From positions 1 through 51,545 of the forward strand of contig JBDTZG010000040.1 of the NCBI GenBank assembly GCA_040005235.1: a stretch of 51,545 nucleotides of DNA. Reading direction: 5' to 3'. Below are positions 2,080-16,503 of this stretch, one piece after another. Below the pieces are notes generated by a model that was given only the letters and a program-made list of their open reading frames with translations, was not told the origin of the DNA and did no database searches. Position numbers and translations under genes: made by a program. Source of the DNA: Acidobacteriota bacterium (GTDB taxonomy: Bacteria > Acidobacteriota > Thermoanaerobaculia > Multivoradales > UBA5704). Positions within the stretch are counted from its first letter, which is position 1. Each line of letters opens with the position of its first letter.

Positions 2080-2316
2080 CTACGCCAGCCCCAACTCTTC
2101 GAGCGACCGGGCGGTCAAGAGCCGCTCGGCGAGCGAGCCCAGCTCCTCAGGGGAACGGATCGCCTCAACCCGGGCTACCACCTGGCCGGTGAGCAACGGA
2201 AAGCGGCTGCGGAGCAGGCGCAGGAGGACTTCGCGCATGCCGTTCTCTTTGCCTCGCTCCATGCCTGTTTCCAGGCCTCGCGCCTCAACCTTCTCTTCCC
2301 AGGTGACAGGTTTCAT
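2080..2316 (-). CDS. Putative internally translated small protein (RpnS-like antitoxin, 78 aa)
   Basis: In-frame ATG at 2316 preceded by GGAGGT-CGAT, at the boundary of the C-terminal domain. Confidence 0.55.
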   Translation of the reverse strand: MKPVTWEEKVEARGLETGMERGKENGMREVLLRLLRSRFPLLTGQVVARVEAIRSPEELGSLAERLLTARSLEELGLA

Positions 2317-2997
2317 ATCGACCTCCGGTTTTCTGTGCCGGGCGCGTAGGGAGACGTACTCCTCTACCGCGCCGCCGCCCAATTCTAGATAAGTTGCCAC
2401 GCAATTGAACAGCAGGAATCTCTCGACGTCGGTTAAGCCGTCGGCCGAGGCGATTTTGGCGAAGCAAGAGCGGCGCAGGTGATGACGGTCGCCGTCCCGA
2501 GTCCTCCCGAGCGCCGCGAAGGCCCAGGCGAGCGGCTCTGTTCGCGCGAGGAAGGTTTCGGCACGTGCTCCCGAAAGGCCGAAGCTTCGGTAGCAGAGCC
2601 TCCCGACCTCTCGCCCGCAAGAGGTCTCGGAGTACTGCGAGGACTCCGGCCCCCGCGGACCACCCCGTAGATAGAGGACGATCGTATGGACCGGCAGCCG
2701 GCGTCGCAGGCCGAGCAGCCGGTTGTAGATCCAAAGTCGCGGCGGCACCTTCACCCGATAGCGCAGCTCGATTTCCACATGCACGAAGACGTCGTTTCCT
2801 TCGAGCGTCTTGGCGCTGCCGACCAGATCCATCCGCCGTTCGGCCCCGGTCGGTTGGTCGAGGAATTCTTGAGCCGGCTCAAGCCTCAGCGAAGACACCT
2901 CGAGCCAAGAGGTCAGGTCGTCGTCGACCAGGCGCAGGAAATCCACGGGAAAAGTTCGAATCAGGTCCTTCCAAAGTTGATCGTGACCGCCCGCCAT
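2080..2997 (-). CDS. Rpn/YhgA-like recombination-promoting nuclease (PD-(D/E)xK) with C-terminal DUF4351-like helical domain
   Basis: N-terminal HDQLWKDLI, RRMDLV...VHVEIE nuclease motif, LPVHTIVLYL, and C-terminal RG.E.G repeats plus LLRLLRSRF...LLTARSLEELGL. AAGGAG lies upstream of the ATG. Confidence 0.8.
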   Translation of the reverse strand: MAGGHDQLWKDLIRTFPVDFLRLVDDDLTSWLEVSSLRLEPAQEFLDQPTGAERRMDLVGSAKTLEGNDVFVHVEIELRYRVKVPPRLWIYNRLLGLRRRLPVHTIVLYLRGGPRGPESSQYSETSCGREVGRLCYRSFGLSGARAETFLARTEPLAWAFAALGRTRDGDRHHLRRSCFAKIASADGLTDVERFLLFNCVATYLELGGGAVEEYVSLRARHRKPEVDMKPVTWEEKVEARGLETGMERGKENGMREVLLRLLRSRFPLLTGQVVARVEAIRSPEELGSLAERLLTARSLEELGLA

Positions 2998-3254: not shown

Positions 3255-4118
3255 TCACCGCGAGACTTGGTTACGCTGGATCAGCACCTCGAATTCTTCC
3301 CTTTCCAGGAACTGAACGGTCAGCTCCCTCAACACTCGATTGCGGAGACATCCTCCCGCCAGCACCACAGTCGGTCGTGCGAGGCCGGCTTCTACCCGTG
3401 GCGGCAGAACCTTTTGGACCATCGAAACGAGGGAATGCGCAAAGCTGCGGTGGAAGCGGGCTGCGATGGTGCCGACCGGGGTTTCGAGGAGGAGGTCCCC
3501 GAGGATCGCGGCCCAGGCACCTAGGGGCTCGATATAGGGCAGGCCCCGGCCGCCCAGGCGCGGGATGGCGAAGGGGTAGATGAGGGTTTCGTCCTCGTCG
3601 AGGGCGGCGGGATCGACTGCGGCTTCGAGCATTTGCCCGGGCTGGCCTTTGAAATCGACAGGCGCGCGGCAGAGGCCGACGGCCGCGGCGGCGGCATCGA
3701 AGAGCCGGCCGCAGGAGCTGGCGAGCGGACTGGTGGTTCGATCGGACATCTCGCCCGGGAGCACTTCGCTCCGCCGTTCGGCGAGGAAGGCCTTGAGCGG
3801 AAGATCGGCGAAATCCATCGCGAAGCGCGGCCAGCCCATTTCGGCCATGAGGTGGGCGTAGAGGCTGCGCCAAGGTTCGGCTCGTGTCGCTTCTTCGCCT
3901 CCGGGCAATACCACGGGCTTCAGGGTTCCCAGGCGCTCATAGGAGTGGAAATTGGCGAGCAGGAACTCGCCCCCCCATAAGGTGCCGTCGTCTCCCGGCG
4001 CCATTCCTCCGAGGACGATGCCTAGCACCGGTAGCGCATCGAGCGGCTGCCCGTGGTCGCGTAGGCAGTCGACGATCCGGGCATGGGGAGACTTCGGCGC
4101 TTCGGGCAGGAGCGTCAT
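3255..4118 (-). CDS. hypF: HypF C-terminal (Kae1-like) fragment, catalytically degenerate
   Basis: DGTLWGGEFL, LPGG...EPWR, SSCGRLFDAAAA, IAARFH and VVLAGGC.RN motifs present. HHHAH is replaced by PHARI, DGxGxG by GGMAPG, and the terminal PxNDGG motif is missing. Confidence 0.8.
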   Translation of the reverse strand: MTLLPEAPKSPHARIVDCLRDHGQPLDALPVLGIVLGGMAPGDDGTLWGGEFLLANFHSYERLGTLKPVVLPGGEEATRAEPWRSLYAHLMAEMGWPRFAMDFADLPLKAFLAERRSEVLPGEMSDRTTSPLASSCGRLFDAAAAAVGLCRAPVDFKGQPGQMLEAAVDPAALDEDETLIYPFAIPRLGGRGLPYIEPLGAWAAILGDLLLETPVGTIAARFHRSFAHSLVSMVQKVLPPRVEAGLARPTVVLAGGCLRNRVLRELTVQFLEREEFEVLIQRNQVSR

Positions 4119-4735
4119 CTTCTGGGCTCCTGCGTCAAGGTGTAGGCCGGCAACGGGCCGGGCGAAGATCCAGCACTCACCACGGCCACCGGTTGGCCCA
4201 GCCGACGAAAGATCAGATGTTCAAGCGCCGTCGCCGCGAGTTGAACCGGGATCGCCCCGGCGGTCGGAAAACGCTGCGCCGCCTCCAGATCGCGCGCCAG
4301 CCCGTGAAGGTTCTCGCCGCGCTCCGAGGCCCAGGCCGCGAGAGTTTCTACGATCGATTCCCGCAGCGCATCACCGAGCAGGCGAAAACCCTCCATGTCG
4401 CGGACGGCGACGATCTCACCGCGTTGGATCAGAGTCGCCACGGCATCGACGTCGTCCAGGATGCTGAACTGGTCGAACGAGATCTCCGCGCCGTCGGTGC
4501 GGGAGAGGCAGGCCCGGGGGCCGCAACGGTGGCAGGCCGTGGCCGGGGCCTCGAAATGGCGGTCGTTCGGATTTTCAAACTCACGCCGGCAGTCCACGCA
4601 CATCTGTTGGGCCGAGCGCGGCGGAAGCGCCGGGGTACAGCGGGAGCAAGATGCGAACGGATACCGGTAGCGCCGCTCGAACGGGCTCACAACCTCGCCC
4701 AGGCAATCGGGGCAGCCGCCGCGAAGCCGCTCCAT
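4115..4735 (-). CDS. hypF: HypF N-terminal fragment (two Zn fingers plus truncated YrdC-like region, no acylphosphatase domain)
   Basis: CPDC...RRYRYPFASCSRC and MCVDC..EF.NP.DR.F..PATACHRCGP. GEIVAVRDMEGFRL corresponds to G.IVAvKGxGGFHL. ATGA overlap with the downstream fragment. Confidence 0.8.
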   Translation of the reverse strand: MERLRGGCPDCLGEVVSPFERRYRYPFASCSRCTPALPPRSAQQMCVDCRREFENPNDRHFEAPATACHRCGPRACLSRTDGAEISFDQFSILDDVDAVATLIQRGEIVAVRDMEGFRLLGDALRESIVETLAAWASERGENLHGLARDLEAAQRFPTAGAIPVQLAATALEHLIFRRLGQPVAVVSAGSSPGPLPAYTLTQEPRR

Positions 4736-5626
4736 TTAACGGCTGAGCCGGATCTCGACCCGGTTTTCGATCAGGCGGACCGCGTGCTGTTCGAGCTGCA
4801 CCTTCGGCGCGGTCAGGCACTCCCCCGTTTCGAGCGAATATTCGAAGCCGTGGTGAGGGCAGGTGAGGATGCCTTCTTCGATCTTCCCCTCGTCGAGCGG
4901 CATTCCCAGATGGGCGCACGAGTTGGAAAAACAGGCGATCGCGTCGCCCGTGCGGGAGAGCAGCAGGTCGCGCTCGGCGATCTGCCGGTGCAGAATGCCG
5001 CCGAGCGGGATCTCGTCGAGCCGGGCGGCCAGGTGCCATGAGGCGTCGCCGTCCAAGGCTCCGAGCGCGAACGGGCTGACGAACCGGACGCCGCCTTCCC
5101 CCGCCGGAGCGGCGGCGAGTCCTTTGACCTCGACCACGTGGAGGATCTCAGGACAGGTTTCTAGGATCGCCTTCTTCACACCTGCGACGAACGTGAGCTG
5201 CGAAGCCGCGCAGCCGTCGCAGGCGCCGAGGAACCGCACCTCCACCGTGTCCGGCAGTTTGATTCGCACCAGCTCGACGTTGCCGCCGTGCGATCCGAGC
5301 ATCGGACGGATCTGCTCCAAGGCGGCATCGACTTTTTCCTGCAAACTGGGCTTGACCAGCTCGAAATGGCGCAGGACGCCGTAGACCAGCTCGTCGCGGA
5401 GCGATTCTTTGAGCAGAGCGAGCGCGTTGGGATCGGTCTTGAGGCCCGCGATCAATCGGCGGATCGCTTCTCGGTGCAGGTTTTCGAGCGCTGTGCGATA
5501 GGCCCGGACCGCCCCTCGCTGCTCCGGCTCCCAGGTGGCGAACAAAGTGTCCAGCGCCGCCAGGTCTTTGACCAGACCAGCGAGCTGGGGCGTGGCGCGC
5601 GCGTCGTCGGAGGGAGGTCCGGTCAA
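4736..5626 (-). CDS. NifU-like CxxC domain plus Rieske [2Fe-2S] fusion (hydrogenase accessory)
   Basis: IRPMLGSHGGNVEL...GACDGC (NifU domain) and NSCAH...TCPHHG (Rieske ligands). Likely TTG start at 5626 overlaps the upstream stop; the ORF track start at 5698 overlaps another gene. Confidence 0.85.
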   Translation of the reverse strand: MTGPPSDDARATPQLAGLVKDLAALDTLFATWEPEQRGAVRAYRTALENLHREAIRRLIAGLKTDPNALALLKESLRDELVYGVLRHFELVKPSLQEKVDAALEQIRPMLGSHGGNVELVRIKLPDTVEVRFLGACDGCAASQLTFVAGVKKAILETCPEILHVVEVKGLAAAPAGEGGVRFVSPFALGALDGDASWHLAARLDEIPLGGILHRQIAERDLLLSRTGDAIACFSNSCAHLGMPLDEGKIEEGILTCPHHGFEYSLETGECLTAPKVQLEQHAVRLIENRVEIRLSR

Positions 5627-5847
5627 CGGAACTTGAGGTCCTTGAACAGATAGGGCTGGAGCATTCCGCCCAGGAATCCGGCGATGCCGGCGCTCCACGG
5701 AAGAGAAAGGCCCGCCGCGAATAGACCGATCGCGACGACCGCGGCGGCGCCGGCGCCGATCAGATTCTGACGCACGACATCGGCTGGGTTTTGAAACAAT
5801 TTACCGGCGATAAACAGCTTGATCGAGGCGAGCGCCATGTCCCACAT
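5623..5847 (-). CDS. Small membrane protein of group 2a hydrogenase clusters (74 aa)
   Basis: Two hydrophobic segments and C-terminal QPYLFKDLKFR. Tightly packed in the operon. Cyanobacterial hup/hyp regions have comparable small membrane ORFs next to TPR and NifU genes. Confidence 0.7.
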   Translation of the reverse strand: MWDMALASIKLFIAGKLFQNPADVVRQNLIGAGAAAVVAIGLFAAGLSLPWSAGIAGFLGGMLQPYLFKDLKFR

Positions 5848-5850
5848 CGG

Positions 5851-6060
5851 TTAGCTCCTCGCCACGGCCCAAAGGGCCAGGATACCCAGGCTCAAAAGGA
5901 CTCCGAGAAATCCGCCGACCGGGCCGAAGAACGCGCCCATCATCGCTGCCAAACTGTTGCCGAGGATCTTGCGCCCGACCAGTAGGCCGCCGAGTACTCC
6001 GCCGAGGATCGATGTGACGAGCGCGAAGAGGAGGGCGATCCCAGCCTGTCCGCCGCTCAT
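5851..6060 (-). CDS. Small Gly-rich membrane protein (69 aa)
   Basis: Hydrophobic, LAAMMGAFFGP motif, ATGA overlap with the TPR gene. Confidence 0.7.
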   Translation of the reverse strand: MSGGQAGIALLFALVTSILGGVLGGLLVGRKILGNSLAAMMGAFFGPVGGFLGVLLSLGILALWAVARS

Positions 6061-7067
6061 GAGACCACCGAGCGGCTGGATTGCGCTTCCGCGAGCTCTT
6101 CGCCGATCTGGTCCAGAGCTTCGCGCACCGAGGCTGATTTCATGATTTCGTCGCTTTCGTCGAAAATTTCGAGCGCCTCGGCCAGCAGACGCTGCGCTTG
6201 TTTCAGATTGGCGAAATCGCCGCTTTCCGGGCTCTGCGGATCGTCCGGCAAGCCCCAGAGGCAGGTCGCCTTGTTGGCGAGGGTGTTGGCGTATTCGAGC
6301 GGCATGTCCTTGCGCGTTCGGACCCGCAGCGCCTCGTCGTAGGCATCGAGCGCGCGCAGGCGATTTTCCAGGGCATGGCTGGTGGTCACCGACTGAAGAG
6401 CATTGCCTAGATTGCTTTGCAGCATCGCGTATTCGACCGGGTGGTCGACGATGTTGACCCCGCGCAAGCCTTCCTCGAAGGAGGTGACGGCCAGGGCCTC
6501 GCTCATCTTCGAGCCTTCACCACCGACCGAAACCGAGAGGAACGCCGTCGCGAGGTTGTTGTGCAGAATGGCGAACTCTTTGGGAAAGCGCTCGCGGTCG
6601 AAAACCCGGAGCGCCCGCTGGTAGGCGGTGATCGCGTCCTGGATGCGTCCGCTCCCCTGGGCGGCGAGCGATTGGACGATCAGGCCTCGATTCATTTCCA
6701 GCTCGGCCACCTCTTCGGGCAGCCCGAGCGCCATCAGCGTCGGCGCGGCGTCGTCGAGGCAATTGAGAGCCTGGTCGAGCGGCGCGGTCGAATCGCCGGG
6801 CAGGGCGCGCAGCGCGGTCGACATGCGGGCGAGGGTCCGCGCCTTGAGCAGCGGCTCGGACTCGGGGCAGGTTTCGAGCGCCTTCCTGTAGAGCGTGACG
6901 GCGCCTTCGAGCTGTGCGGCGAGGCGCGGATTCTTTTGCAGGCCCATCGCGATCTCGACCAGCATCTCGGTCTTTTCAACCGGCGAAGCCAACGAGCTCT
7001 CGACCGTGGCAAGGGCCACCTCGACGTCCGTCTTGTAGCGATCTTCGGAGAGTTGCGGGCTCAACAC
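6057..7067 (-). CDS. TPR-repeat protein (hydrogenase accessory)
   Basis: Repeated helical units (AITAYQRALRV, FAILHNNLATA, YAMLQSNLGNA, YANTLANKA). Likely GTG start at 7067 overlaps the upstream stop. Confidence 0.8.
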   Translation of the reverse strand: MLSPQLSEDRYKTDVEVALATVESSLASPVEKTEMLVEIAMGLQKNPRLAAQLEGAVTLYRKALETCPESEPLLKARTLARMSTALRALPGDSTAPLDQALNCLDDAAPTLMALGLPEEVAELEMNRGLIVQSLAAQGSGRIQDAITAYQRALRVFDRERFPKEFAILHNNLATAFLSVSVGGEGSKMSEALAVTSFEEGLRGVNIVDHPVEYAMLQSNLGNALQSVTTSHALENRLRALDAYDEALRVRTRKDMPLEYANTLANKATCLWGLPDDPQSPESGDFANLKQAQRLLAEALEIFDESDEIMKSASVREALDQIGEELAEAQSSRSVVS

Positions 7068-7420
7068 TGTTGGGGAGTCTCGCAGAAGAACCCTTCGATG
7101 ACCAGGGCCGCCAAGTCGTCGTCCCACCGTGCCGAGAATGCAAACTCCCGGTAGCCATCGATCAGCTCGTCGTCGAGGTGGTAGAGCCGGAACAGCTCCA
7201 CCCCCGAGATGGCGCGATCCCCGGCGAGGTTGACGATCTTGACCAGATTTCCGCCCCCGGAATTCTGTACCGGGAGAATCAGCAGGCGTTGCTCCCGAGG
7301 CAACAGCAAGACCGAGTGCAACCCGCTGAAATAACGTTCGAAGGTTTCAGCCGGTACCAGCAGCGATCCGTGGCGCAGGGTGAGGAGGACGTCGCCTTGC
7401 GGCGGCGCGGAGCCGACCAT
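7061..7420 (-). CDS. Hypothetical protein of the hydrogenase cluster (119 aa)
   Basis: Fills the gap between operon genes with tight spacing. GGGNLVKIVNLAGDRAI and ARWDDDLAALVI look like conserved blocks; I recall similar proteins near group 2a maturation proteases but cannot verify this. Confidence 0.65.
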   Translation of the reverse strand: MVGSAPPQGDVLLTLRHGSLLVPAETFERYFSGLHSVLLLPREQRLLILPVQNSGGGNLVKIVNLAGDRAISGVELFRLYHLDDELIDGYREFAFSARWDDDLAALVIEGFFCETPQQC

Positions 7421-7423
7421 CCC

Positions 7424-7768
7424 CTAGATCCGCCAGACGTTGCAGGACCATTCCGGTTTCACCGGCAGATCGATCTCGGGCAGCACGCACCAGCCGTGAT
7501 GGACTTGAAAATACATGCAGGTTTCGCAGGATTGTTCGAGGTCGAAGTGGGTTACGGAATGGTCGGTGAATCCGGCGAGGCGCAGTTTGGTCGTCAACTC
7601 TCCGTCGCTCGCGCGGATCGATCTGACGATCGCTTGGAATTGTTCGCTGTCATCGGCACGAATTCGCCAATCTGTACCAAGGCCGTCCGAGAGGAGTTGC
7701 GCGATGTTCTCGCGGACGGTTTCGGCCGAATCTTGGCCGGGCATGCCCGGATACAGCGTTGCGTCCAC
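7424..7768 (-). CDS. Standalone HiPIP-like 4-Cys putative Fe-S protein (about 114 aa, no signal peptide)
   Basis: C-x2-C-x9-C-x14-C with flanking aromatics (CETCMYF...WC...WSCNVW). GGAG precedes GTG at 7768; an alternative ATG is at 7744. Confidence 0.7.
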   Translation of the reverse strand: MDATLYPGMPGQDSAETVRENIAQLLSDGLGTDWRIRADDSEQFQAIVRSIRASDGELTTKLRLAGFTDHSVTHFDLEQSCETCMYFQVHHGWCVLPEIDLPVKPEWSCNVWRI

Positions 7769-7805
7769 AGCGCATTCTCCCCGACCGCGGCCCCTGGGCG
7801 GCCAA

Positions 7806-8768
7806 TCAGATGACGAAGATGTCTTCCTCCGCCCAAGCCGGCGAGGCGGCCTTCGCCGCAACGGTCATCTTCAAATAGCCGTTCTTCTCGACCCCGTCCG
7901 GAAGGTCGCGCGGCACGCCCATCACGGTCTGAGTCTTGAACACGCTTCCCGGCGCGAGGTCGAAGAATGGGAACTCGGGCTCGGTGCAGCCGATGCAGGG
8001 CATGCCCGCCCGCGTTTTCGACGACTGGCGATTCCATAGGATCCGGTTGCACGGGCTGTGGGTCATCGGCCCTCGACAGCCAAGGTCGTAGAACAGACAG
8101 CCGCGGCGTTGCCCGAACTCGGTCGCCGAGACCTTGTAGGCGAAATGCATGTTGCGGGTGCAGCCGGTCTGAGTGTAAGTGGTGAAGAACGTCTTCGGCC
8201 TTTGCAGCTCATCGAGGGTGATCTCACCGCTGCGGCCGGTCGCCACCGCCACGAGAATTTGGGTCACCCAGTCAGGGTGGGCAGGGCATCCTGGGATGTT
8301 AATCACCGGAAGCCCGTTCTTCGCTTGGAAAGAAGATCCGAGAAATCCGCCACGCCGACGCTTTAGGAACTGGAGTCCTTCCGAATCGGTGGGATTGGGC
8401 GCGGTCGCGGGGATGCCTCCCCACGTGGCGCAATCGCCGATCGCCACTACGTGCCCCGCGGCCGCGGCGAGATCCTTCACCCAATCCTTCATCGCCCGGC
8501 CGGCGAATCGATTCCACTCCCCGGTACCGTTCGGCGCGTTGACGATCGTGCCCTCAAACACCAGGATATCCAAGGGTTTTCTGCCCGTCACGCAATCTTC
8601 GAGAAGCTGGATCAGATTGTCCCCCAGCTCCATGCCGAGCGAGGGATGCCAGAGGACGTTGATGCCGAAGTCGGTGACCAGATCGCAAGCCGAGGGCTCC
8701 TCGGCGTTCAGAAACGACATCGTGTTTCCCGAGCACGCGCCGCCTTGCAGCCATAAGAGGTTCGCCAC
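7806..8768 (-). CDS. hupS: Group 2a [NiFe]-hydrogenase small subunit, copy 1
   Basis: WLQGGACSGN (Asn in the proximal-cluster motif), GDC, PGCP, TQTGC (Gln instead of the distal His), GCLFYDLGC, HSPC and PCIGC. 320 aa with no Tat signal, as in cyanobacterial HupS. GTG start. Confidence 0.95.
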   Translation of the reverse strand: MANLLWLQGGACSGNTMSFLNAEEPSACDLVTDFGINVLWHPSLGMELGDNLIQLLEDCVTGRKPLDILVFEGTIVNAPNGTGEWNRFAGRAMKDWVKDLAAAAGHVVAIGDCATWGGIPATAPNPTDSEGLQFLKRRRGGFLGSSFQAKNGLPVINIPGCPAHPDWVTQILVAVATGRSGEITLDELQRPKTFFTTYTQTGCTRNMHFAYKVSATEFGQRRGCLFYDLGCRGPMTHSPCNRILWNRQSSKTRAGMPCIGCTEPEFPFFDLAPGSVFKTQTVMGVPRDLPDGVEKNGYLKMTVAAKAASPAWAEEDIFVI

Positions 8769-8813
8769 GTCATGCCCCCGATCAGGATTCCTAGGGTATA
8801 GTAGCCGAAAGTT

Positions 8814-10634
8814 ATGCTAGTCGACAGTTCCAAAAAATTATTGATATTGCGCATTGCCTACGCCGGCGCGCCGCTGTCCGGAAAAACGGCGACGATGAAG
8901 GCTCTGATGTCGATCCTTCGCAGTCAGACCACGGGAGATCTGGTCTACTCGCCGCTCGAAGCGCGCGGCCGGACGATCTATTTCGATTGGGCGGAATACC
9001 AGGGCGGCAGCTTTCGCGACGGCCAGGTGAAGTGTCAGATCACCTCGGTGCCGGGGCAGGAATCCCTCCGCCGCCGCCGCAACCTGCTGATCGAAGCGGC
9101 CGACGCCGTGGTGTTCGTGATCGACTCCCGGTCCGACCAGATGGAGGTCAACCGGAAGAGCCTCGCCGAGCTTCGCCCGTGGCTCGACCGGTACGACCTC
9201 GCGCCGATTGACGTCGTCTACCAATGCAACAAACGCGATCTTCCGGGCACCCTCGGAATGGATCAGATCCGCGAGGAGCTGGCCCTCGGTTCCGAGGCGG
9301 AGCTGTACGAGAGCTCGGCTCTCCAGGGAGACGGCGTCCGCATCGCCTTCGTCGCGGCGGTTCGCTTCGGCGTCCGGCAGGCCGAGATCCTCCGCGCTTC
9401 GAACCGGCTGCCGACCGGTACGCCGGAGATCGCGACCGGCGAGCAGCTGCTGGATCAGGTGCGGCTCGCCGACGACCCCAGCGCGTCCCCGACGGAGCCG
9501 GAGCCCGCTCCGGCACCGGTCCCGGTTCCGCCACCTGTTCCGCCACCGACGTCCCCCGCTCCCCTTTCGGCATCTCCTGCGGCTCAGGCCTCTGCGCAGA
9601 CAACGTCGCCGGCCTCGCCGCAATCGCGACCTGCCGTGATGCCCATGGCCGATTGGTTGGCCGAGCGGGCGGCGCAGGTCGGCCACGGGGCTCGGCCGGC
9701 GACGGCGATGACGCCTGAGTCCCTAAAGACCGTAGCGACCCCGGAGACCCCGGAACCCCCCGAGATCCCGGAGGCCGCGAAGAACGCCGATGCCGAAATC
9801 CTCGAGGCGATGGCTTCCGAGTCGACGGTAGAGCCGGTCGACGTCGAAGCCATGAAGATCGTCGCCACCGCGCCTACCTCCGCGGTTCCGAAGCCGCCGG
9901 AACCCCAGGGGCCGACGGCGCGACCCGCGCCCTGGCTTCGCGGAGGAGAAGCCGGGGTGCTGGCCGCTTGGCCGGCCGGGATCTGGGAGGCGATCCGGCT
10001 TTCGGTCGATCCGAGCCTCGATCCGCCGAAGGCGAACCTGGAGGTGCTCCAGGGCCGCATCGGAGGCGGGTGGCACGCCCGCTCGGGCGGGTTATGCAAG
10101 AGCCTCGAAGAAGGGCGGGCTCAATCTCAGCGGCTGGTCGATTGGCTGACCCGGCTGGGCGACGCTGTTTCGGTGCAGCGCTGCATCGTCCTTTCGGTCG
10201 TCGCGGAGGGCTGGCGGGTCTGGCAGCTGGGCCGCGAGCTGCCGACCCTCGGCATGCTTCTCCAACAAGGCCTGGAACCGGGCCTGCCGTCGCGGAAAGC
10301 GGTGCAGATCCTCTCCCAGATCTCGTCCGACTTCGTCTCCACCTACCGGGATTTCGCGGACCGCAAGGTGGAGCTTCCGCTGCTGCTCCGCACCCTCGCC
10401 AAGGAACACGGCAAAACGGTCTACTCGGGGTTCCTGCCCAATTCGCCCGTCCCCCTGCGGGAAGCGGATCCTCTGGCTCAGCTGGAGAGCGAGCTTCTCC
10501 TGCTCGCCAAGGCTCACAGGTTGGGCGCGCTCGACATCCCCGAGACCTTGACCGAGCTGGAGCTGTTGAGCGCCAGATCCCCCGCTGTTCTTCCCATCGT
10601 TGAACTCTTGCAGTCCTTGTTGATCGGAGAGTAG
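8814..10634 (+). CDS. MglA-family small GTPase with Pro-rich linker and unknown C-terminal domain (606 aa)
   Basis: RIAYAGAPLSGKT (G1), GRTIYFDW (MglA RTLFFDF, with Arg finger), SVPGQ (G3, MglA TVPGQ), ADAVVFVIDS, NKRDLP (G4) and SA (G5). Residues ~220-370 are P/A/E-rich. Confidence 0.85.
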   Translation: MLVDSSKKLLILRIAYAGAPLSGKTATMKALMSILRSQTTGDLVYSPLEARGRTIYFDWAEYQGGSFRDGQVKCQITSVPGQESLRRRRNLLIEAADAVVFVIDSRSDQMEVNRKSLAELRPWLDRYDLAPIDVVYQCNKRDLPGTLGMDQIREELALGSEAELYESSALQGDGVRIAFVAAVRFGVRQAEILRASNRLPTGTPEIATGEQLLDQVRLADDPSASPTEPEPAPAPVPVPPPVPPPTSPAPLSASPAAQASAQTTSPASPQSRPAVMPMADWLAERAAQVGHGARPATAMTPESLKTVATPETPEPPEIPEAAKNADAEILEAMASESTVEPVDVEAMKIVATAPTSAVPKPPEPQGPTARPAPWLRGGEAGVLAAWPAGIWEAIRLSVDPSLDPPKANLEVLQGRIGGGWHARSGGLCKSLEEGRAQSQRLVDWLTRLGDAVSVQRCIVLSVVAEGWRVWQLGRELPTLGMLLQQGLEPGLPSRKAVQILSQISSDFVSTYRDFADRKVELPLLLRTLAKEHGKTVYSGFLPNSPVPLREADPLAQLESELLLLAKAHRLGALDIPETLTELELLSARSPAVLPIVELLQSLLIGE

Positions 10635-10639
10635 GGGCC

Positions 10640-11602
10640 ATGGCAAACGTACTTTGGCTTCAAGGCGGCGCCTGTTCGGGCAACAGCATGTCGTTTCTAA
10701 ACGCCGAGGAACCGAGCGCCTGCGAACTGATCACGACGTTTGGAGTGAACCTCCTGTGGCATCCGTCGTTGGGGATGGAGCTGGGCGACAACCTGATCCA
10801 GCTGCTCGAAGATTGCGCATCGGGCCGAAAAAAGCTCGACATCTTCGTCTTCGAGGGGACGGTCGTCCACGCGCCGGACGGCTCCGGCAACTGGAACCGG
10901 TTCGCCGGCAGGCCGATGAAGGAGTGGGTGAAGATCCTTTCGGCCGCCGCCGACTACGTGGTCGCGATCGGCGACTGCGCCACCTGGGGCGGCATACCGA
11001 CCACGGCGCCCAATCCGACCGAATCGACCGGCCTGCAGTACCTCAAGCGGAGCAAGGGCGGCGCTCTGGGCTCGACCTTTCAGAGCAAGAACGGCCTGCC
11101 GGTCGTGAACATCCCGGGATGTCCCGCCCACCCCGATTGGATCACCCAGATCCTGGTCGCTTTGGCCACCGGCCGGATCGAGGATCTCGATCTAGACGAC
11201 CTGCAACGGCCGCGGACCTTCTTTGCGAGCTTCACGCAGACCGGCTGCACCCGCAACATGCATTTCGTCTGGAAGGTGTCGTCGACCGAGTTCGGCCAGC
11301 GGAAAGGTTGCCTGTTCTACGACCTGGGCTGCCGCGGTCCGATGACCCATAGCCCGTGCAACCGGATCCTCTGGAATCGTCAATCCTCGAAGACCCGGGC
11401 GGGAATGCCCTGCCTGGGATGCACCGAGCCGGAGTTCCCTTTCTTCGACCTGGCGCCGGGCACGGTGTTCAAGACGCAGACCATGATGGGTTTCCCGAAG
11501 GAGATGCCGGCGGGAATCGACAAGAGCGGCTACATCAAGCTCACCGCGGCGTCCAAGATGGCGGCTCCGGCCTGGACCGAAGACGATTTTTTCGTAGTCT
11601 AA
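10640..11602 (+). CDS. hupS: Group 2a [NiFe]-hydrogenase small subunit, copy 2
   Basis: Same length and Fe-S ligand set as copy 1. About 69 of 320 positions differ by hand count. Starts 5 bp after the GTPase stop. Confidence 0.95.
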   Translation: MANVLWLQGGACSGNSMSFLNAEEPSACELITTFGVNLLWHPSLGMELGDNLIQLLEDCASGRKKLDIFVFEGTVVHAPDGSGNWNRFAGRPMKEWVKILSAAADYVVAIGDCATWGGIPTTAPNPTESTGLQYLKRSKGGALGSTFQSKNGLPVVNIPGCPAHPDWITQILVALATGRIEDLDLDDLQRPRTFFASFTQTGCTRNMHFVWKVSSTEFGQRKGCLFYDLGCRGPMTHSPCNRILWNRQSSKTRAGMPCLGCTEPEFPFFDLAPGTVFKTQTMMGFPKEMPAGIDKSGYIKLTAASKMAAPAWTEDDFFVV

Positions 11603-11632
11603 TCATGACCCCCTCCTCGGGAGATCCCGGTA

Positions 11633-13231
11633 ATGGCAGCCACCCGCACCCTTGACATCAGTCCCGTCGGCCGAGTGGAGGGCGACCTCGACGTCCGGGT
11701 CGACATCCAGGACGGAATCGTCGTCGATTCCTGGACCTCGGCCGAATTGTTTCGCGGCTTCGAGGTCATCCTGCGCGACAAGGATCCGCAGGCCGGCCTG
11801 GTCGTGACGCCGCGCGTCTGCGGCATTTGCGGCGCGTCCCACTTGACCTGCGCCGCCTGGGCGCTCGACACCGCCTGGGGCGCCGAGGTGCCGAGGAACG
11901 CGATCCTGACGCGCAATCTTGGGCAGATCGTCGAAAGCCTGCAGAGCCTGCCGCGCCATCACTACGGTCTGTTCCAGATCGACTTCACCAACGCCAACTA
12001 CCGCAAAAGCCCCTTCTACGAAGAGGCGGTGCGACGGTGGACGCCGTTTACCGGCACCAACTACCGGATCGGCATCGGCATCTCCGGCAAGCCGGTGGAG
12101 ATCTACGCGCTGTTCGGCGGCCAGTGGCCGCATTCGAGCTTCATGGTTCCGGGCGGCGTAATGTGCGCCCCCACGCTCACCGACGTCACCCGCTCCTGGT
12201 CGATCCTGGAATACTTCCGCCGCACCTGGATCGAGCCGGTCTGGCTGGGCTGCTCGATGGAGCGCTACGAGGAGATCCGCAGCTACCAGGACTTCATGGC
12301 CTGGCTCGAAGAAAGCCCCGCGCACGCCAACTCCGACCTCGGTCTGTTCTGGCGCATGGGCGTCGACGTAGGCGTCGATCGCTACGGCGGCGGTCACCGG
12401 AAGTTCTTGAGCTGGGGCTACCTGCCGCATGAGGACAAGTATCAAAAACCGACGGTCGAAGGGCGCAACGAGGCCCTGATCATGAAGAACGGCATCTACG
12501 ACTTCCACCTCGACCAGCATCGCGAGACGTCGCAGGAGATGGTGCGGGAAAGCACCGGCCGCGCCTGGTACGACGAGGGCGAAAAGCCGGTTCACCCGTT
12601 CGACCGCCTGACCCGGCCGATCAATAAGAACGACCGTGACTTCGACGGCAAATACTCCTGGTCCACCGCCGTCAGTCATGCCGAAGAGGGACGTCTGGAA
12701 GCGGGCCCCTTGTCGCGGCAGCTGGTCGCCGGCGGACCGCAGGAGCGCGCCTTCCAGCACAACGACCCGCTGGTGCTCGACATGATGAAGACGATGGGGG
12801 GCCCAAGCCTCCTGCTGCGCCACTTCGCGCGCATGCACGAGCTGGTCAAGCTCTACCGCCAGGCCGAGCGCTGCCTGCGCGAGCTCCGCCTGGACGAACC
12901 GTTCTATATCAAGCCCGAGGAGCGGGACGGTCGCGGCTGGGGAGCGACCGAGGCGATCCGCGGCGCGCTCTGCCACTGGATCGACGTCAAGGACGGCAAG
13001 ATCAAAAACTACCAGATCATCGCGCCGACCACCTGGAACGTCGGTCCGCGCGACGGCCAGGGCAACCGGGGACCGATCGAACAGGCCCTCTTGGGCGTGC
13101 CGATCGCCAATCCCGCCGACCCCGTGGAGGTAGGACACGTCGCCCGCTCGTTCGACTCGTGCCTGGTGTGTACCGTACACGCCCACGACGCCAAAACCGG
13201 GAAAGAACTGGCTCGTTTCAAGACGTCGTAA
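11633..13231 (+). CDS. hupL: Group 2a [NiFe]-hydrogenase large subunit (HupL/HucL)
   Basis: GRVEGDL, FRGFE, L1 motif PRVCGICGASH, L2 motif SFDSCLVCTVH followed by a 16-aa cleavable tail. 532 aa. Confidence 0.95.
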   Translation: MAATRTLDISPVGRVEGDLDVRVDIQDGIVVDSWTSAELFRGFEVILRDKDPQAGLVVTPRVCGICGASHLTCAAWALDTAWGAEVPRNAILTRNLGQIVESLQSLPRHHYGLFQIDFTNANYRKSPFYEEAVRRWTPFTGTNYRIGIGISGKPVEIYALFGGQWPHSSFMVPGGVMCAPTLTDVTRSWSILEYFRRTWIEPVWLGCSMERYEEIRSYQDFMAWLEESPAHANSDLGLFWRMGVDVGVDRYGGGHRKFLSWGYLPHEDKYQKPTVEGRNEALIMKNGIYDFHLDQHRETSQEMVRESTGRAWYDEGEKPVHPFDRLTRPINKNDRDFDGKYSWSTAVSHAEEGRLEAGPLSRQLVAGGPQERAFQHNDPLVLDMMKTMGGPSLLLRHFARMHELVKLYRQAERCLRELRLDEPFYIKPEERDGRGWGATEAIRGALCHWIDVKDGKIKNYQIIAPTTWNVGPRDGQGNRGPIEQALLGVPIANPADPVEVGHVARSFDSCLVCTVHAHDAKTGKELARFKTS

Positions 13232-13244
13232 GGAGGCCTTCCTT

Positions 13245-14342
13245 ATGGCACAGTGGGAACCGCAGATTCGCACCAACCTGGACGATGAGGTCTACCAGGA
13301 ACAGCTCGACAGATTTCTGAGCAGCGTTCCCGGAACCCTCGGCGCGGGCTTTGTGAACACCCGTTTTCACGAGGGCGTCTACCGCCAATCCGGAGGCCGC
13401 GCGGGAGAGGCCGAAGAGCTGCGGACGATGATCGATCTCACCACCGGCCTGTTCGGCGGTCCGGAAGCCGAAAAGGACCCCGGCTTTGTGCAGGCGTTCG
13501 CCGCGATCCGTCCGATCGAATCCGCCTACTTCAATTTCCGCGAAGAGACCCTGCTCTTGAGTCGCGTGGGCGACACCGAGAACGCCCTTGTGCTGACCGT
13601 CTCCGCGAGCCTCAACCAGGCGGCGGCGTTGAGCCTTCGACGCTCGGTCACCGAACAGGTCCAGGTCTCAGGGAAGACGGAGATCGGTCCCACTCTCGAA
13701 GCCACCAACGAGGTCTTGCTCGGCCTCCTCCTCGACCTCAAGGCGGGCGAGGTTCTGGATCGGTACGAGCGCTTCGAAGAGGTCTCGGTGGTCAAGCCGG
13801 ACGGTGACCTGACCGAGCTCGTGCGCGACCTTTTCTTAGCGAACGGACCGGCGCGCGGGGTGAACCTCCACCATCGCGACGTCAAGTCGATCGAGATACG
13901 CCGCGCGGAAATCGTGACGCCGACGCGCAGCTTCCTCTGGGCACGGCTCAATTTCGACCCCGAGCATCTGATGGTGGTATCCGCCGACCGGCGGGTCATT
14001 CCCGGCCTGCTCGCGATCATGATGCGCGCGATCGAGGTCGAAACCGTGAGGATCTGGGTCGACGGCCTCTTAAGCTACGGCATCAAATCGACCATGAGCC
14101 CGTTCCCCGACACCCAGTCGGAGTTTCTCGCCATCGTCCGCGATCTTCGCCGGCTCGAAAAGAACGACCTCCTGGGCAGGCTCGATCTCGGAGGCTTCGC
14201 CAACTACACCGTCGGCGAAGGCGAAGAGATGCAGCGCTGCCAGGAGTGCATCTATTACCTGCCCAACGGCAAGTGGTGCGACCTGCCCGAGCTGCCGGTA
14301 CCCGTCGAGCCCCACTGGTGGTGCCGGCTTTGGAAGATGTAA
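13245..14342 (+). CDS. Fusion protein: two Roadblock/LC7 (MglB-like) domains plus C-terminal HiPIP-like 4-Cys module
   Basis: The C-terminal ~95 aa are clearly homologous to 7424-7768 (CQECIYY...WC...WWCRLW, same Cys spacing). The N-terminal part has Roadblock-like patterns (FLSSVPGTLGAGFVN...IESAYFNFREETLLLSRV...LVLTVSASLNQAAAL and IRRAEIVTPTRSFLWARL...LMVVSADRRVIPGLL). The CDS is secure; the Roadblock assignment is by eye. Confidence 0.7.
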   Translation: MAQWEPQIRTNLDDEVYQEQLDRFLSSVPGTLGAGFVNTRFHEGVYRQSGGRAGEAEELRTMIDLTTGLFGGPEAEKDPGFVQAFAAIRPIESAYFNFREETLLLSRVGDTENALVLTVSASLNQAAALSLRRSVTEQVQVSGKTEIGPTLEATNEVLLGLLLDLKAGEVLDRYERFEEVSVVKPDGDLTELVRDLFLANGPARGVNLHHRDVKSIEIRRAEIVTPTRSFLWARLNFDPEHLMVVSADRRVIPGLLAIMMRAIEVETVRIWVDGLLSYGIKSTMSPFPDTQSEFLAIVRDLRRLEKNDLLGRLDLGGFANYTVGEGEEMQRCQECIYYLPNGKWCDLPELPVPVEPHWWCRLWKM

Positions 14343-14346
14343 GGGG

Positions 14347-16503
14347 CTAAGGACGGGCGCCGGACATGCTGTATTCGAAAAGTCCCGGAGCGGCCGAGGT
14401 GGCGGCGTACAACGTCCAGCCGCCCTCCTGCCCCGGTTGCAGGTCGAGACCGACGACTTCGGCGCGCAACGTTCGCGGACCCAGCGCCTGCCAGGTCGTG
14501 CCGGCGTCGAGCGAGCGGAAGACTCCGCGGCTGGTTGCCGCGAACAGGATCCGAGCCACAGGCGGAACCGCGTCGGCGGAGGGCGAAGAAAAACCGCTGG
14601 CCAGGAACCTGTGGACCGTGGTTCCCGCCGGCAAGCCGCGGCCAAACGGCACAAAACTCCGGCAACCGTCGGTACTCCGCCATAGCCCGGGGTTCGGCCC
14701 GCCGACCGCCGCCAAAAGCGGCGACGGCTCGCCCGGAATCGGCTGGCGCGGTGGCAACGTCGCTAGCGCCTCGACGGGCCTCGGTAAACCGTCGGCGAGA
14801 CATGCCTGCCAGGGTCCATCGACGTTCGAGCGCACGAAGAGAGCGGTGCCACCGGCATACGTAACGCCGTTCGTCGGATCCTGAGCCAGCGCCCGCAGGA
14901 AACCTGTCCGAGCCGATGGCGTGCCACTCGGGTCGATGCCGTCGACCGACAGTTTCCAACTGCTGCCCCCGTCTTCGCTCTGCCAAGCCGTCGGAATCGG
15001 TAAGGCGCCACAGAACGGCAGACCGCACGGCACATACTGAGCTCCCGCGGCGAGGACCGTGCCGGAGGCGGTGACCAGCACGTCGTTCAGCGTACCCACC
15101 GTGCTCTCGGCACGGAGCCAGTGGGCGCCTCCGTCCCGGCTGGCGAAGATTCCGGCGGCGCTGGCGGCATAGACCCGGCGCGGCCGATCCGGGTCGAACG
15201 CCAACGCCATCACGACCGGTGCCGCGCCGCGAAATGCCAGGCCGAGATCCGACGGTTGCCAAACGCTCCCGGCCGCGGTCCGGCGCGCCAGGCCCGCGCC
15301 GCCCCCGCCAAACTCCGTACCCGCCGTCGTCGCGACCAGCACGTCTCCTTCGGTCCGTGGGTTTGAGGTCGGAGCGACGGCTACCGCGCTGCCGCCCAGC
15401 GCCGTCAGCCCCGCCGTCACCGCCTGCCATCGTGCGCCGCCGTCCCGGCTGATCAAGAGGCCCCGCCCGTACACACCGGCGACCACCGTCCCCTCATCGC
15501 TCGAAGACGTCGCCACCGTCTGCAGAATCGGCGTTTGTCGCTCGCGGCGCCAGGTCGCCCCGGCGTCCGACGTTCGCCACAGCTCGCCACGGACATCTTG
15601 GCCGAAGCGGTTCACGGCCACCAGGACCTTTCCCGGCGCGTGCGGATCGATGGTGATGGCCGCAAAGTCGATCTCGCCGTCCGGTCCAAGCCTGGCGAGA
15701 GACGGCCGCCAGTGCCCGCCGCCGTCCAGGCTCTTGAAGACGGTCGCGCCATCGAGATTGGCGGCGTACACGTTCGCCGAGGTCTGGGGGTCGACGGCGA
15801 TGGCGACGACGAACACCGCTCTCGGATTCGCGGACAACCCTTCGTTCATCAGGGTCCAAGCACCGCCGCCGTCGACAGTTTTCAGCACCCCGCCATTGGT
15901 CGCCGCGTAGACCACCGCCGATGTCGAGGGGTCGACCGTCAGGTCATGGACGTAGAAGCCGATGGCGAGGGGCGCGGTCGGCTGCCAACTGGCGCCGCCG
16001 TCGGTGCTTCGCAGGATCGCCTCGCGAGTCGTGGCGTAGAGCACCGACGGAGCGACCGGTGAGCGCGAGAGCAATGCCACTGGAGGACCCGCGGCCACCC
16101 AGCTCTCCCCTCCCGACATGGTTCGGAACAGTCCGGCACCCGTCGCAGCCAGGACGATCCGAGGGTCGCGCGGGTCGATGTCGAGGTCGCTGATCCGGAG
16201 CCGGCCCGGCGCGTCGAGGCCGCGGCTCGCGGCGCGCCAGGAGCGTCCGCCGTCGAGGCTTTTCCAGACCCCTGCATCGGCGGTCCCCGCATAAAGGATC
16301 GCCGGCTGGCTCGGATCGAACGCCACGGCGGTCACCGTTCCGCCGGTCACACCCGACGGAGTCCAGCGGTTGACGCCCGCGTGGAGGGCGGAGGCGACGG
16401 TTCCGAGGACGAGCAGCGCGACGCTCGCGCGAGCGAGCCACTTCGAGCCCGGTTGTAAAGCACCAGAGGATATTAAGCCGAGGATTGAGCCAGGCAAACG
16501 CAT
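14347..16503 (-). CDS. Secreted BNR/Asp-box beta-propeller protein (VPS10/YCF48-like)
   Basis: Signal-like segment ending ALHA and about a dozen S/TxDGGxxW Asp-boxes. Confidence 0.8.
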   Translation of the reverse strand: MRLPGSILGLISSGALQPGSKWLARASVALLVLGTVASALHAGVNRWTPSGVTGGTVTAVAFDPSQPAILYAGTADAGVWKSLDGGRSWRAASRGLDAPGRLRISDLDIDPRDPRIVLAATGAGLFRTMSGGESWVAAGPPVALLSRSPVAPSVLYATTREAILRSTDGGASWQPTAPLAIGFYVHDLTVDPSTSAVVYAATNGGVLKTVDGGGAWTLMNEGLSANPRAVFVVAIAVDPQTSANVYAANLDGATVFKSLDGGGHWRPSLARLGPDGEIDFAAITIDPHAPGKVLVAVNRFGQDVRGELWRTSDAGATWRRERQTPILQTVATSSSDEGTVVAGVYGRGLLISRDGGARWQAVTAGLTALGGSAVAVAPTSNPRTEGDVLVATTAGTEFGGGGAGLARRTAAGSVWQPSDLGLAFRGAAPVVMALAFDPDRPRRVYAASAAGIFASRDGGAHWLRAESTVGTLNDVLVTASGTVLAAGAQYVPCGLPFCGALPIPTAWQSEDGGSSWKLSVDGIDPSGTPSARTGFLRALAQDPTNGVTYAGGTALFVRSNVDGPWQACLADGLPRPVEALATLPPRQPIPGEPSPLLAAVGGPNPGLWRSTDGCRSFVPFGRGLPAGTTVHRFLASGFSSPSADAVPPVARILFAATSRGVFRSLDAGTTWQALGPRTLRAEVVGLDLQPGQEGGWTLYAATSAAPGLFEYSMSGARP

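Follow-up and report, generated by a model that had tools for sequence, protein, structure and literature searches.

Why should a hydrogenase locus keep two intact genes for its small subunit beside a single gene for the large one? The question is raised by a stretch of acidobacterial DNA (NCBI GenBank assembly GCA_040005235.1, contig JBDTZG010000040.1, positions 1 to 51,545 of the forward strand), called the window here, whose 51,545 nucleotides are contig C108 of the source genome G000 (6.2 Mb, 140 contigs; a soil acidobacterium, Thermoanaerobaculia-like). Group 2a (Huc-type) hydrogenases oxidize atmospheric H2, and how those outside the actinobacteria hand off their electrons without HucM is an open question. 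Two small-subunit paralogues per catalytic subunit, each encoded beside a different HiPIP-like partner, amount to a natural experiment on this hand-off, and the locus offers two candidate exits that are genetically separable.

Judged by its genes, the locus encodes a group 2a [NiFe]-hydrogenase of a Thermoanaerobaculia-like acidobacterium and has been rearranged: the usual one-strand operon appears to have been split into two divergent operons sharing a 45-bp control region of presumed promoter function. Two intact, canonical and constrained small-subunit genes, S1 and S2, are co-inherited in at least four lineages, with one cognate large subunit, L. The reading that we favor, with a probability of roughly 0.55, is that S1 and S2 both bind this single large subunit. 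In what follows, G denotes genomes, L plus a number the loci used for comparison, and a bare L the large subunit of the window.

Two constrained small subunits and one large subunit

The hydrogenase locus spans ~3255-14342 of the window, as delimited by the listing of open reading frames (ORFs) and Pfam. Read 5' to 3', its minus arm encodes S1, the 4-Cys protein C4s, the accessory protein o119, a TPR protein, a HucE-type protein and two HypF-like ORFs; its plus arm, which begins 45 nt from the S1 start codon, encodes a GTPase, S2, L and a second 4-Cys protein, C4L. The features at the center of the locus are as follows.

7424..7744 (or from GTG 7768), minus strand: C4s, a short HiPIP-like 4-Cys protein of B type (four invariant cysteines, weak fold matches)
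7806..8768, minus strand: S1, group 2a (HucS-type) small subunit, copy 1, 320 aa, GTG start
8769..8813, no strand: divergent intergenic region of 45 bp with a TATAGT-like motif, aligned in 5/5 sequences
8814..10634, plus strand: 606-aa GTPase with an MglA-like N-terminal domain (~1-200), a Pro/Ala-rich linker and a C-terminal domain of unknown fold
10640..11602, plus strand: S2, group 2a (HucS-type) small subunit, copy 2, 320 aa, ATG start
11633..13231, plus strand: L, group 2a (HucL-type) large subunit (Pfam NiFeSe_Hases, E 5.3e-75; 7UTD_A, E 6.8e-185)
13245..14342, plus strand: C4L, 365 aa, with a Roadblock/LC7-fold region (~9-275) and an A-type HiPIP-like 4-Cys domain (~266-365)

S1 and S2 align by BLASTP with 251/320 identities (78%), 297/320 positives and 0 gaps. 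At the DNA level they form one inverted repeat pair of 963 nt, 76% complementary and 1873 nt apart, with an overall identity of 75.7% that divides into 83, 91 and 53% at codon positions 1, 2 and 3. By the method of Nei and Gojobori (NG86), the nonsynonymous and synonymous distances between the paralogues (dN and dS) are 0.150 and 1.12, a ratio (omega) of 0.13. A third-position identity of only 53% and a dS of 1.12 indicate an old split, and thus not a repeat that an assembler could collapse or double. Both proteins match the Pfam families Oxidored_q6 and NiFe_hyd_SSU_C, and both align over their residues 2-320 with HucS from Mycobacterium smegmatis (7UUR_D; E 1.6e-157 for S1 and 1.3e-153 for S2). 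By E-value, S1, S2 and L are closely related to M. smegmatis HucS and HucL, and the enzyme is therefore of group 2a. L starts 31 nt downstream of S2 and is the only large subunit of the locus; its N- and C-terminal Cys-x2-Cys nickel-iron ligands can be read from the translation, and a C-terminal extension past the last Cys-x2-Cys-x2-His looks like that expected for proteolytic maturation. The left arm, in which C4s begins 61 nt 3' of S1, has no large subunit.

In the translations, eleven cysteines occupy identical positions in S1 and S2 (12, 28, 59, 113, 161, 203, 224, 231, 240, 258 and 261), among them the nine cluster ligands (12, 113, 161, 203, 224, 231, 240, 258 and 261), and Asn15 and Gln200, which stand in place of a fourth ligand, are invariant across 49 aligned sequences including both copies. 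By analogy with Huc as described in excerpts of the structural study (PMC10017518), both copies would carry three [3Fe-4S] clusters. The residues of HucS given there as holding menaquinone, Lys212, Tyr229 and Tyr301 (PMC10017518, in excerpt), align with K212, Y227 and Y298 in S1 and in S2 alike. Both are of the cytosolic type, with 11 residues before Cys12 and no twin-arginine signal peptide, and the first residue of the solved HucS chain pairs with their residue 2.

An earlier note, made by a reader of the letters alone, had described two 320-aa small subunits on opposite strands, without indels, at about 78% identity and with all iron-sulfur ligands kept, their changes dense in the last ~40 residues. 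It had also placed a standalone 4-Cys ORF directly behind copy 1, in an arm without a large subunit, and copy 2 in a GTPase operon, and had given each arm a 4-Cys partner of its own. All of this was borne out by the alignments and gene calls: S2 follows the 606-aa GTPase gene and precedes the sole L, and C4s lies in the left arm and the 365-aa C4L behind L.

Constraint on the two copies was examined against 138 distinct small subunits from loci with a single small-subunit gene, in which 230 columns are at least 90% conserved. The S1 clade has two fixed changes at these columns (D182E and K287R), so that 228/230 are kept, and the S2 clade four (L4V, K192R, Y211W and A313T); all six are conservative. 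Between the orthologs of G000 and G002, dN/dS is 0.042 for S1, the lowest of the locus, 0.103 for S2, 0.101 for L and 0.13 for C4s, then 0.15 for HucE, 0.25 for C4L, 0.28 for the TPR protein and 0.29 for the GTPase. By these ratios, S1 and S2 are both under strong purifying selection.

Recurrence and origin of the divergent layout

The layout is not peculiar to the window. It is complete in G002, with C4L, L, S2 and the GTPase on one strand and S1, C4s, o119, TPR and HucE on the other. G007, which shares an identical S1 with the metagenome locus L121, shows this layout as far as its contig extends, and it recurs in the more distant L115 (S1 85%, S2 86% and GTPase 42% identical to the window), whose small-subunit copies are identical to those of L116. 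Three of the eight genomes of the genus carry the divergent arrangement with two small subunits, and L113 and L114 have the GTPase, S2 and L (L113 also C4L) up to their contig ends. Matching sizes of the longest S1-type, S2-type and GTPase contigs (14676, 15966 and 36947 nt) point indirectly to three more contigs with both copies. The cluster is rare among the phylum genomes searched, with a small-subunit match at E<=1e-100 in 2/401 genomes, G000 included. Close homologues of the GTPase and small subunits carry the source name Thermoanaerobaculia, with one Vicinamibacteria.

The read data point the same way. Logan contigs of runs X1 (8142-11266) and X2 (8142-10773) cross the junction between the arms with 0 differences, though the assembly may itself derive from these two runs, which are hence not independent of it. 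They cover 8142-10773 or further and therefore bridge 8770-8810, where a joint had been suspected. The contigs of both runs break at an exact 31-mer common to S1 and S2, and the two arms have equal depth (15.9/16.3/15.7 in X1; 11.3/12.2/9.94 in X2). Of L, runs X3 and X4 contain no more than short, diverged parts, which are uninformative on this organism.

The intergenic region and its equivalents in L104, L105, L115 and L116 measure merely 45-102 nt. The TATAGT-like motif, which is aligned in G000, G002, G007, L115 and L116 (L115 and L116 being identical), lies ~16 nt before the GTPase start in G000; its location suggests a very short leader and possibly one control site for both arms. A scan of 4500-14600 for sigma-70 promoters and terminators found sites no more numerous than in shuffled sequence.

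To place the locus among its relatives, two comparison sets were used, the 80 genome loci nearest to S1 (Pseudomonadota, Nitrospira moscoviensis, Acidobacteriota, cyanobacterial relatives and others) and the 78 metagenome loci nearest to S2. None of the 80 genome loci has two small subunits; four of the 78 metagenome loci do, L115, L116 and L121 in divergent orientation with the GTPase between and L133 in tandem. The recurrent single-copy order is S, L, a 4-Cys gene of A type, one of B type, o119, TPR and HucE, with TPR and HucE divergent in some loci. C4s has the B-type motifs and C4L those of the A type, so that the left arm corresponds to the canonical operon minus L and the A-type gene, and the right arm supplies these two behind a second small subunit. 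In gene content, both arms jointly are one canonical group 2a set plus one extra small subunit and the GTPase.

In the small-subunit trees, S1 and its orthologues form one clade (support 90/97) and S2 and its orthologues another (98/94). G000, G002 and L115 appear in both, and the S1/S2 split thus predates these lineages. The sister of S2 is a group of metagenome proteins, P0004-P0011 (99/93), that also have R192, W211 and T313. The backbone of these trees is unresolved, and an approximately unbiased (AU) test did not reject S1 and S2 as a single clade (p 0.153, log-likelihood difference 42.9). In the large-subunit tree, the L proteins of the loci with two small subunits group together close to the base (5 rows, support 100), and the row nearest to them is L090. 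L090 also lies beside the S2 group in the small-subunit tree (90/91), a weak congruence that gives a weak hint of S2 as the older partner of L. Complementary gene content favors the split of one canonical operon in which only the small subunit was doubled; the trees decide neither for duplication nor for merger, and the AU test appears compatible with an S1+S2 clade. The earlier note had proposed an old duplication, or a merger of two clusters, under purifying selection: age (dS ~1.1) and purifying selection (omega 0.04 and 0.10) stood, and duplication and merger are not distinguished (AU p 0.153). The phylogeny and dN/dS comparison that it had suggested gave separate S1 and S2 clades holding the same lineages, both copies being constrained.

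Some of the compared loci are of interest in themselves. The S1-S2 dS of L115, 0.47, is lower than those of G000 (1.12) and G002 (0.87); convergence of codon usage or partial gene conversion in the L115 lineage could be the cause. L133 (1-14957) has two tandem HucS-type small subunits (7001-7960 and 7980-8939), on long branches of 0.45 and 0.54, followed by a 106-aa 4-Cys ORF. The tandem pair sits inside a chemotaxis cluster (CheB, CheW, CheA-CheY, CheR and two methyl-accepting chemotaxis proteins with protoglobin domains), with a large-subunit 3' end and a HycI-type protease ~6 kb upstream; the neighborhood may mark an H2- or redox-linked chemotaxis input. In L147 (6947-9134), a HucS-type small subunit 79% identical to S1 stands alone: the 7 kb to each side of it contain no large subunit, and the three small ORFs behind it match no Pfam family. 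Its closest relatives, those of L132 (95% identical) and L134, belong to normal S-L loci.

Partners, acceptor side and competing explanations

The two 4-Cys proteins belong to a small family, with 109 representatives at E<=1e-3 among 1.84 billion. C4s has four invariant cysteines (C73, C76, C86 and C101 in 52 sequences), its best tblastn match is the second 4-Cys gene of canonical loci, and the last 100 residues of C4L are 36% identical to it (E 7e-20). The AlphaFold2 model of C4s has a mean predicted local distance difference test (pLDDT) score of 76.9. Foldseek matched it to HiPIPs or the HiPIP-type PioC in 15 of all 16 matches listed, weakly (E 0.13-4.4), and in VIA the first seven of 13 rows were HiPIPs or PioC, again weakly (Z 5.2-3.5). 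No Pfam or NCBIfam family was found for C4s, C4L, o119 or the C-terminal domain of the GTPase, even at E 10, and a phmmer sequence search of C4s, C4L and o119 against all PDB chains gave chance-level rows only and no HucM match for these three proteins. A hup-adjacent locus of Acidithiobacillus ferrooxidans has already been named a putative HiPIP and candidate electron link (PMC7735108, in excerpt). Among other group 2a loci, several have one 4-Cys gene, not two, and L062, L064 and L065 (labelled Obscuribacterales) have S, L and o119 only, with no 4-Cys gene found by tblastn at E<=1e-5; HiPIP-like partners may therefore be absent from part of the family.

C4L was modelled with high confidence (pLDDT 90.9; predicted template modelling score 0.89). 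Its N-terminus gave low scores (0.83) toward Roadblock in Protein Atlas, a lead only, which was then tested by fold: in VIA, residues ~9-275 matched the Roadblock/LC7 fold of 3KYE (Z 13.5, root-mean-square deviation 2.1, 116/120 residues), 3LEQ (Z 12.9) and MglB (6HJM, Z 11.6), and the top Foldseek rows, Roadblock proteins and MglB, agreed weakly (E 0.003-0.04). The secondary structure of the model suggests that C4L carries two tandem Roadblock units. The GTPase matches Pfam Arf (E 1.1e-8), and its best sequence matches in the PDB are MglA (6HJH, E 2.3e-21; 3T12, E 1.2e-19), with Arf-like proteins at 1.6e-6 or weaker. Its P-loop, NKxD and SA motifs, taken here as those that mark the MglA family, are intact in the translation. 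The GTPase has 56 homologues at E<=1e-5 and also occurs beside the single-S group 2a loci L089, L153, L155 and L166, in L089 together with a full-length fusion of the C4L kind.

The differences between S1 and S2 are concentrated at one end of the protein. Identity is 53% in residues 281-320, as against 70-95% in the other 40-residue bins, and eight of the 14 clade-fixed differences fall in residues 270-320 (Fisher p 3.5e-4). Standard small subunits of the PDB align just to ~residue 270, and this tail, including the Tyr301 equivalent, is therefore specific to subunits of the group 2a type. Position 211, which adjoins the quinone-site Lys212, is Y in S1 and W in the S2 type; among 152 locus-derived sequences it is Y in 142, F in six and H in one. 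F211 was identified in five loci of the L089 clade, namely L089, L143, L154, L155 and L166. The GTPase is seen at L089, L155 and L166, and the contigs of L143 and L154 stop before its expected place; L153, which is GTPase-linked too, has Y211.

If S1 and S2 both bind L, then S1-L and S2-L may be alternative enzymes, or the two may form mixed lobes; that they are separate isoenzymes is a narrower claim than shared binding and a less probable one. The copies differ on the acceptor side, in the tail and at residue 211, so the picture would be of one enzyme with two exits. The S1 form would pass electrons to the HiPIP-like B protein and the HucE side, a respiratory exit, and the S2 form to the HiPIP-like domain fused to Roadblock domains; this fusion and the MglA-like GTPase would make up a regulatory, sensing or targeting exit. 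For the respiratory S1-L and signaling S2-L forms, which the earlier note had offered as an example, the evidence is circumstantial, namely that the S2 operon encodes an MglA-like GTPase and a Roadblock-HiPIP-like fusion. The more specific version, in which S2-L is the input of an H2-responsive switch, the redox state of the fusion setting the nucleotide state of the MglA-like GTPase, and S1-L feeds respiration via the HiPIP-like B protein and HucE, is doubtful. If true, one large subunit would serve both an energy-conserving and a GTPase-signaling hydrogenase, chosen by the small-subunit paralogue, and a functional link between hydrogenase, GTPase and Roadblock protein would couple a bacterial switch of the Ras superfamily to redox or H2 status.

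Several observations weigh against this reading. The pairing of S1 with L is inferred, and the roles of the exits are deduced from gene neighborhood. The tail is variable in the family at large, with 21/90 family-variable columns also in 270-320, and some of the clade-fixed differences there fall at columns that vary among single-copy sequences. The scores by which C4s is called HiPIP-like are weak (E at least 0.13, Z at most 5.2). Transcription of S2 and L together, at ~1:1, would oblige S1 to compete for L unless L is made in excess. The C108 cluster has no endopeptidase or HypD of its own, PF01750 and PF01924 matches being found only on contigs C11 and C91, so that the three large subunits of G000 would share two protease genes. 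Small subunits without an adjacent large subunit occur elsewhere (L133 and L147), and an L-free role is therefore conceivable.

The competing explanation that survives best, though we hold it unlikely, is an obligate hetero-oligomer, in which an S2L2-type homodimer lobe became (S1-L)(S2-L) after duplication and both small subunits are present in every molecule. Excerpts of the Huc structural study describe S2L2 lobes with distal clusters within electron-transfer distance (PMC10017518), and such an arrangement would agree with the co-inheritance of S1 and S2 in 4/4 lineages that show both sides and with the one short divergent control region common to both genes. It would, however, need L at twice the amount of each small subunit, yet L shares an operon with S2 only; moreover, the clade-fixed differences lie near the acceptor site, and a location at a contact between small subunits would be conjectural.

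More improbable is that S1 works without a large subunit, as a stand-alone protein with three clusters that transfers electrons or reduces quinone in concert with the HiPIP-like B protein and HucE. There is no L in the S1 operon, and precedents exist in the tandem S-S-C4 genes of the L133 che operon, which have no adjacent L, and in the lone small subunit of L147. Loss of the interface with L should have relaxed the protein, whereas S1 keeps 228/230 conserved columns at the lowest omega of the locus (0.042), and its end branch is short (0.04-0.05) in comparison with those of the L133 copies.

We give still less weight to simple redundancy, in which S1 and S2 have one function and one set of partners and the second copy persists for dosage or only as head of the left operon. 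The six fixed changes in total at conserved columns, all conservative, are what one would cite for it; but the two have been retained in all lineages seen, paralog dS (~1.1) is saturated, the 14 clade-fixed differences cluster in the tail, and pure redundancy is rarely so stable.

Very improbable is the suggestion of the earlier note that S1 serves a large subunit encoded elsewhere. G000 has three large subunits (on C108, C91 and C11) and four small subunits; a candidate partner is the L of C91, part of a second group 2a-like cluster (G000:C91:76500-82710, the locus L110) whose S, L, TPR and HucE are 68, 55, 34 and 38% identical to the window genes. This L has its own adjacent small subunit, 68% identical to S1, and the L of C11 likewise has one beside it, and the search for an orphan group 2a large subunit that the earlier note had suggested found none in G000. 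Further, G002 (98% complete), with two large and three small subunits, lacks the C91-type cluster yet keeps S1 at 93% identity, and S1 is missing from G001 and G005, which do have the C91 type; the distribution of S1 therefore follows that of no other large subunit. As to the genome as a whole, G000 totals three HucS-like small and two HucL-like large subunits; its third hydrogenase, on C11, is a distant one, and the C91 cluster has its own endopeptidase and HypD.

Finally, a chimeric assembly at 8770-8810, or a bin mixing two organisms, for which no point was found in favor, can be set aside given the same junction in G002, G007 (= L121) and L115 (= L116), the contigs of two runs that bridge 8142-10773 or further with equal depth on both arms, and a similar GC content at third codon positions (0.79 and 0.84).

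Beyond the genes discussed so far, the left arm holds the following features.

7061..7420, minus strand: o119, a 119-aa accessory protein kept in relatives, of no known family
6057..7127, minus strand: TPR accessory protein (weak Pfam TPR matches; the true start may be further in, as the listed start overlaps o119)
4736..5698, minus strand: HucE-type NifU-Rieske iron-sulfur protein (Pfam NifU, E 3e-20; Rieske, E 3.4e-16)
3255..4735, minus strand: two adjacent HypF-like ORFs, the tail of the left arm (Pfam zf-HYPF, E 8.7e-20; HypF_C_2, E 1.3e-48)
4115-4735, minus strand: HypF-like zinc-finger part, 206 aa (Pfam zf-HYPF)
3255-4118, minus strand: HypF-like Kae1-like C-terminal subdomain, 287 aa (Pfam HypF_C_2)

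For o119 there was no match in Pfam, NCBIfam or the PDB; by tblastn it is located 3' of the 4-Cys genes in most canonical loci. The TPR gene is kept between o119 and HucE in canonical loci (44-60% identity), and the HucE-type gene is 44-59% identical to its counterparts there. HucE is needed for Huc activity in M. smegmatis (PMC6883350). HypF at the window locus consists of only the two short ORFs, with no match for the acylphosphatase and YrdC-like parts; the pair also lies 3' of HucE in G002 and G007, and similar pieces occur past HucE in canonical loci. The left boundary of the hydrogenase locus is a 305-aa DUF4351 ORF (window 2080-2997), which we take to be of the Rpn/transposase-like kind and which flanks the locus in G007 and G002 too. 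It is multi-copy in G000, with a copy of 76% on C39 and others on C139, C56, C82, C138 and C12, and may mark a mobile or rearranging region.

Comparison with known systems

The structurally known relative is Huc of M. smegmatis (PDB 7UTD, 7UUR and 7UUS; PMC10017518, in excerpt), to which S1, S2 and L are closely related in sequence and with which the window shares a cytosolic small subunit, the ligand pattern, the quinone-site residues and a HucE-type gene. The window differs in having two small-subunit paralogues per large subunit. No HucM-like match was found for C4s, C4L and o119 (phmmer, PDB), and the window has instead proteins resembling HiPIPs, an MglA-like GTPase and a Roadblock fusion. 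In the group 2b regulatory hydrogenases HupUV/HoxBC, electrons of the S-L pair report H2 to a histidine kinase. What these would share with the window is the concept of a group 2 S-L pair that signals H2; the window is 2a by sequence and has a GTPase and Roadblock protein, not a kinase, and a sensor role of S2-L would be a purely conceptual parallel.

In open-access full text, we found no report of two HucS-type subunits per one L, none, in the result listings, of a hydrogenase tied to MglA or Roadblock proteins, and nothing on group 2a enzymes of Thermoanaerobaculia; occurrences of the phrase "two small subunits" concern other matters. A 2020 survey in the ISME Journal gives hucS, hucE, hypothetical proteins and maturation factors as common neighbors (PMC7784904, in excerpt).

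Closest in gene content are the canonical group 2a loci outside the actinobacteria, as in Nitrospira moscoviensis (L076) and the hup operon of A. ferrooxidans (PMC7735108, in excerpt). They have the same gene families, namely S, L, two HiPIP-like 4-Cys proteins, o119, TPR and the NifU-Rieske HucE, with S1 79-85% and L 72-77% identical. They have one small subunit and lie on one strand, whereas in the window L and the A-type 4-Cys gene are on the opposite strand behind a second small subunit and the GTPase, and the A-type domain is fused to Roadblock domains.

The single-S loci L089 (a metagenome-assembled genome labelled Myxococcota), L153, L155 and L166 share the MglA-like GTPase, at 41-52% identity over the N-terminal domain, and L089 has a full-length Roadblock-HiPIP-like fusion as well (42% over 366 aa), beside a group 2a S-L pair. 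Loci of the L089 type differ from the window in their order, which is S, L, o119, GTPase and fusion, and in having one small subunit and an S-L pair that does not stand between GTPase and fusion. MglB is the GTPase-activating protein of MglA. With the MglA/MglB switch of Myxococcus xanthus and Thermus thermophilus (6HJH, 6HJM and 3T12), the window shares a GTPase domain that matches MglA best and, in the modelled N-terminal part of C4L, the Roadblock fold of MglB. It differs from that switch in that the GTPase continues through a long linker into an additional C-terminal domain, the Roadblock region is joined to a HiPIP-like domain with four cysteines, and the two genes bracket the structural genes of a hydrogenase.

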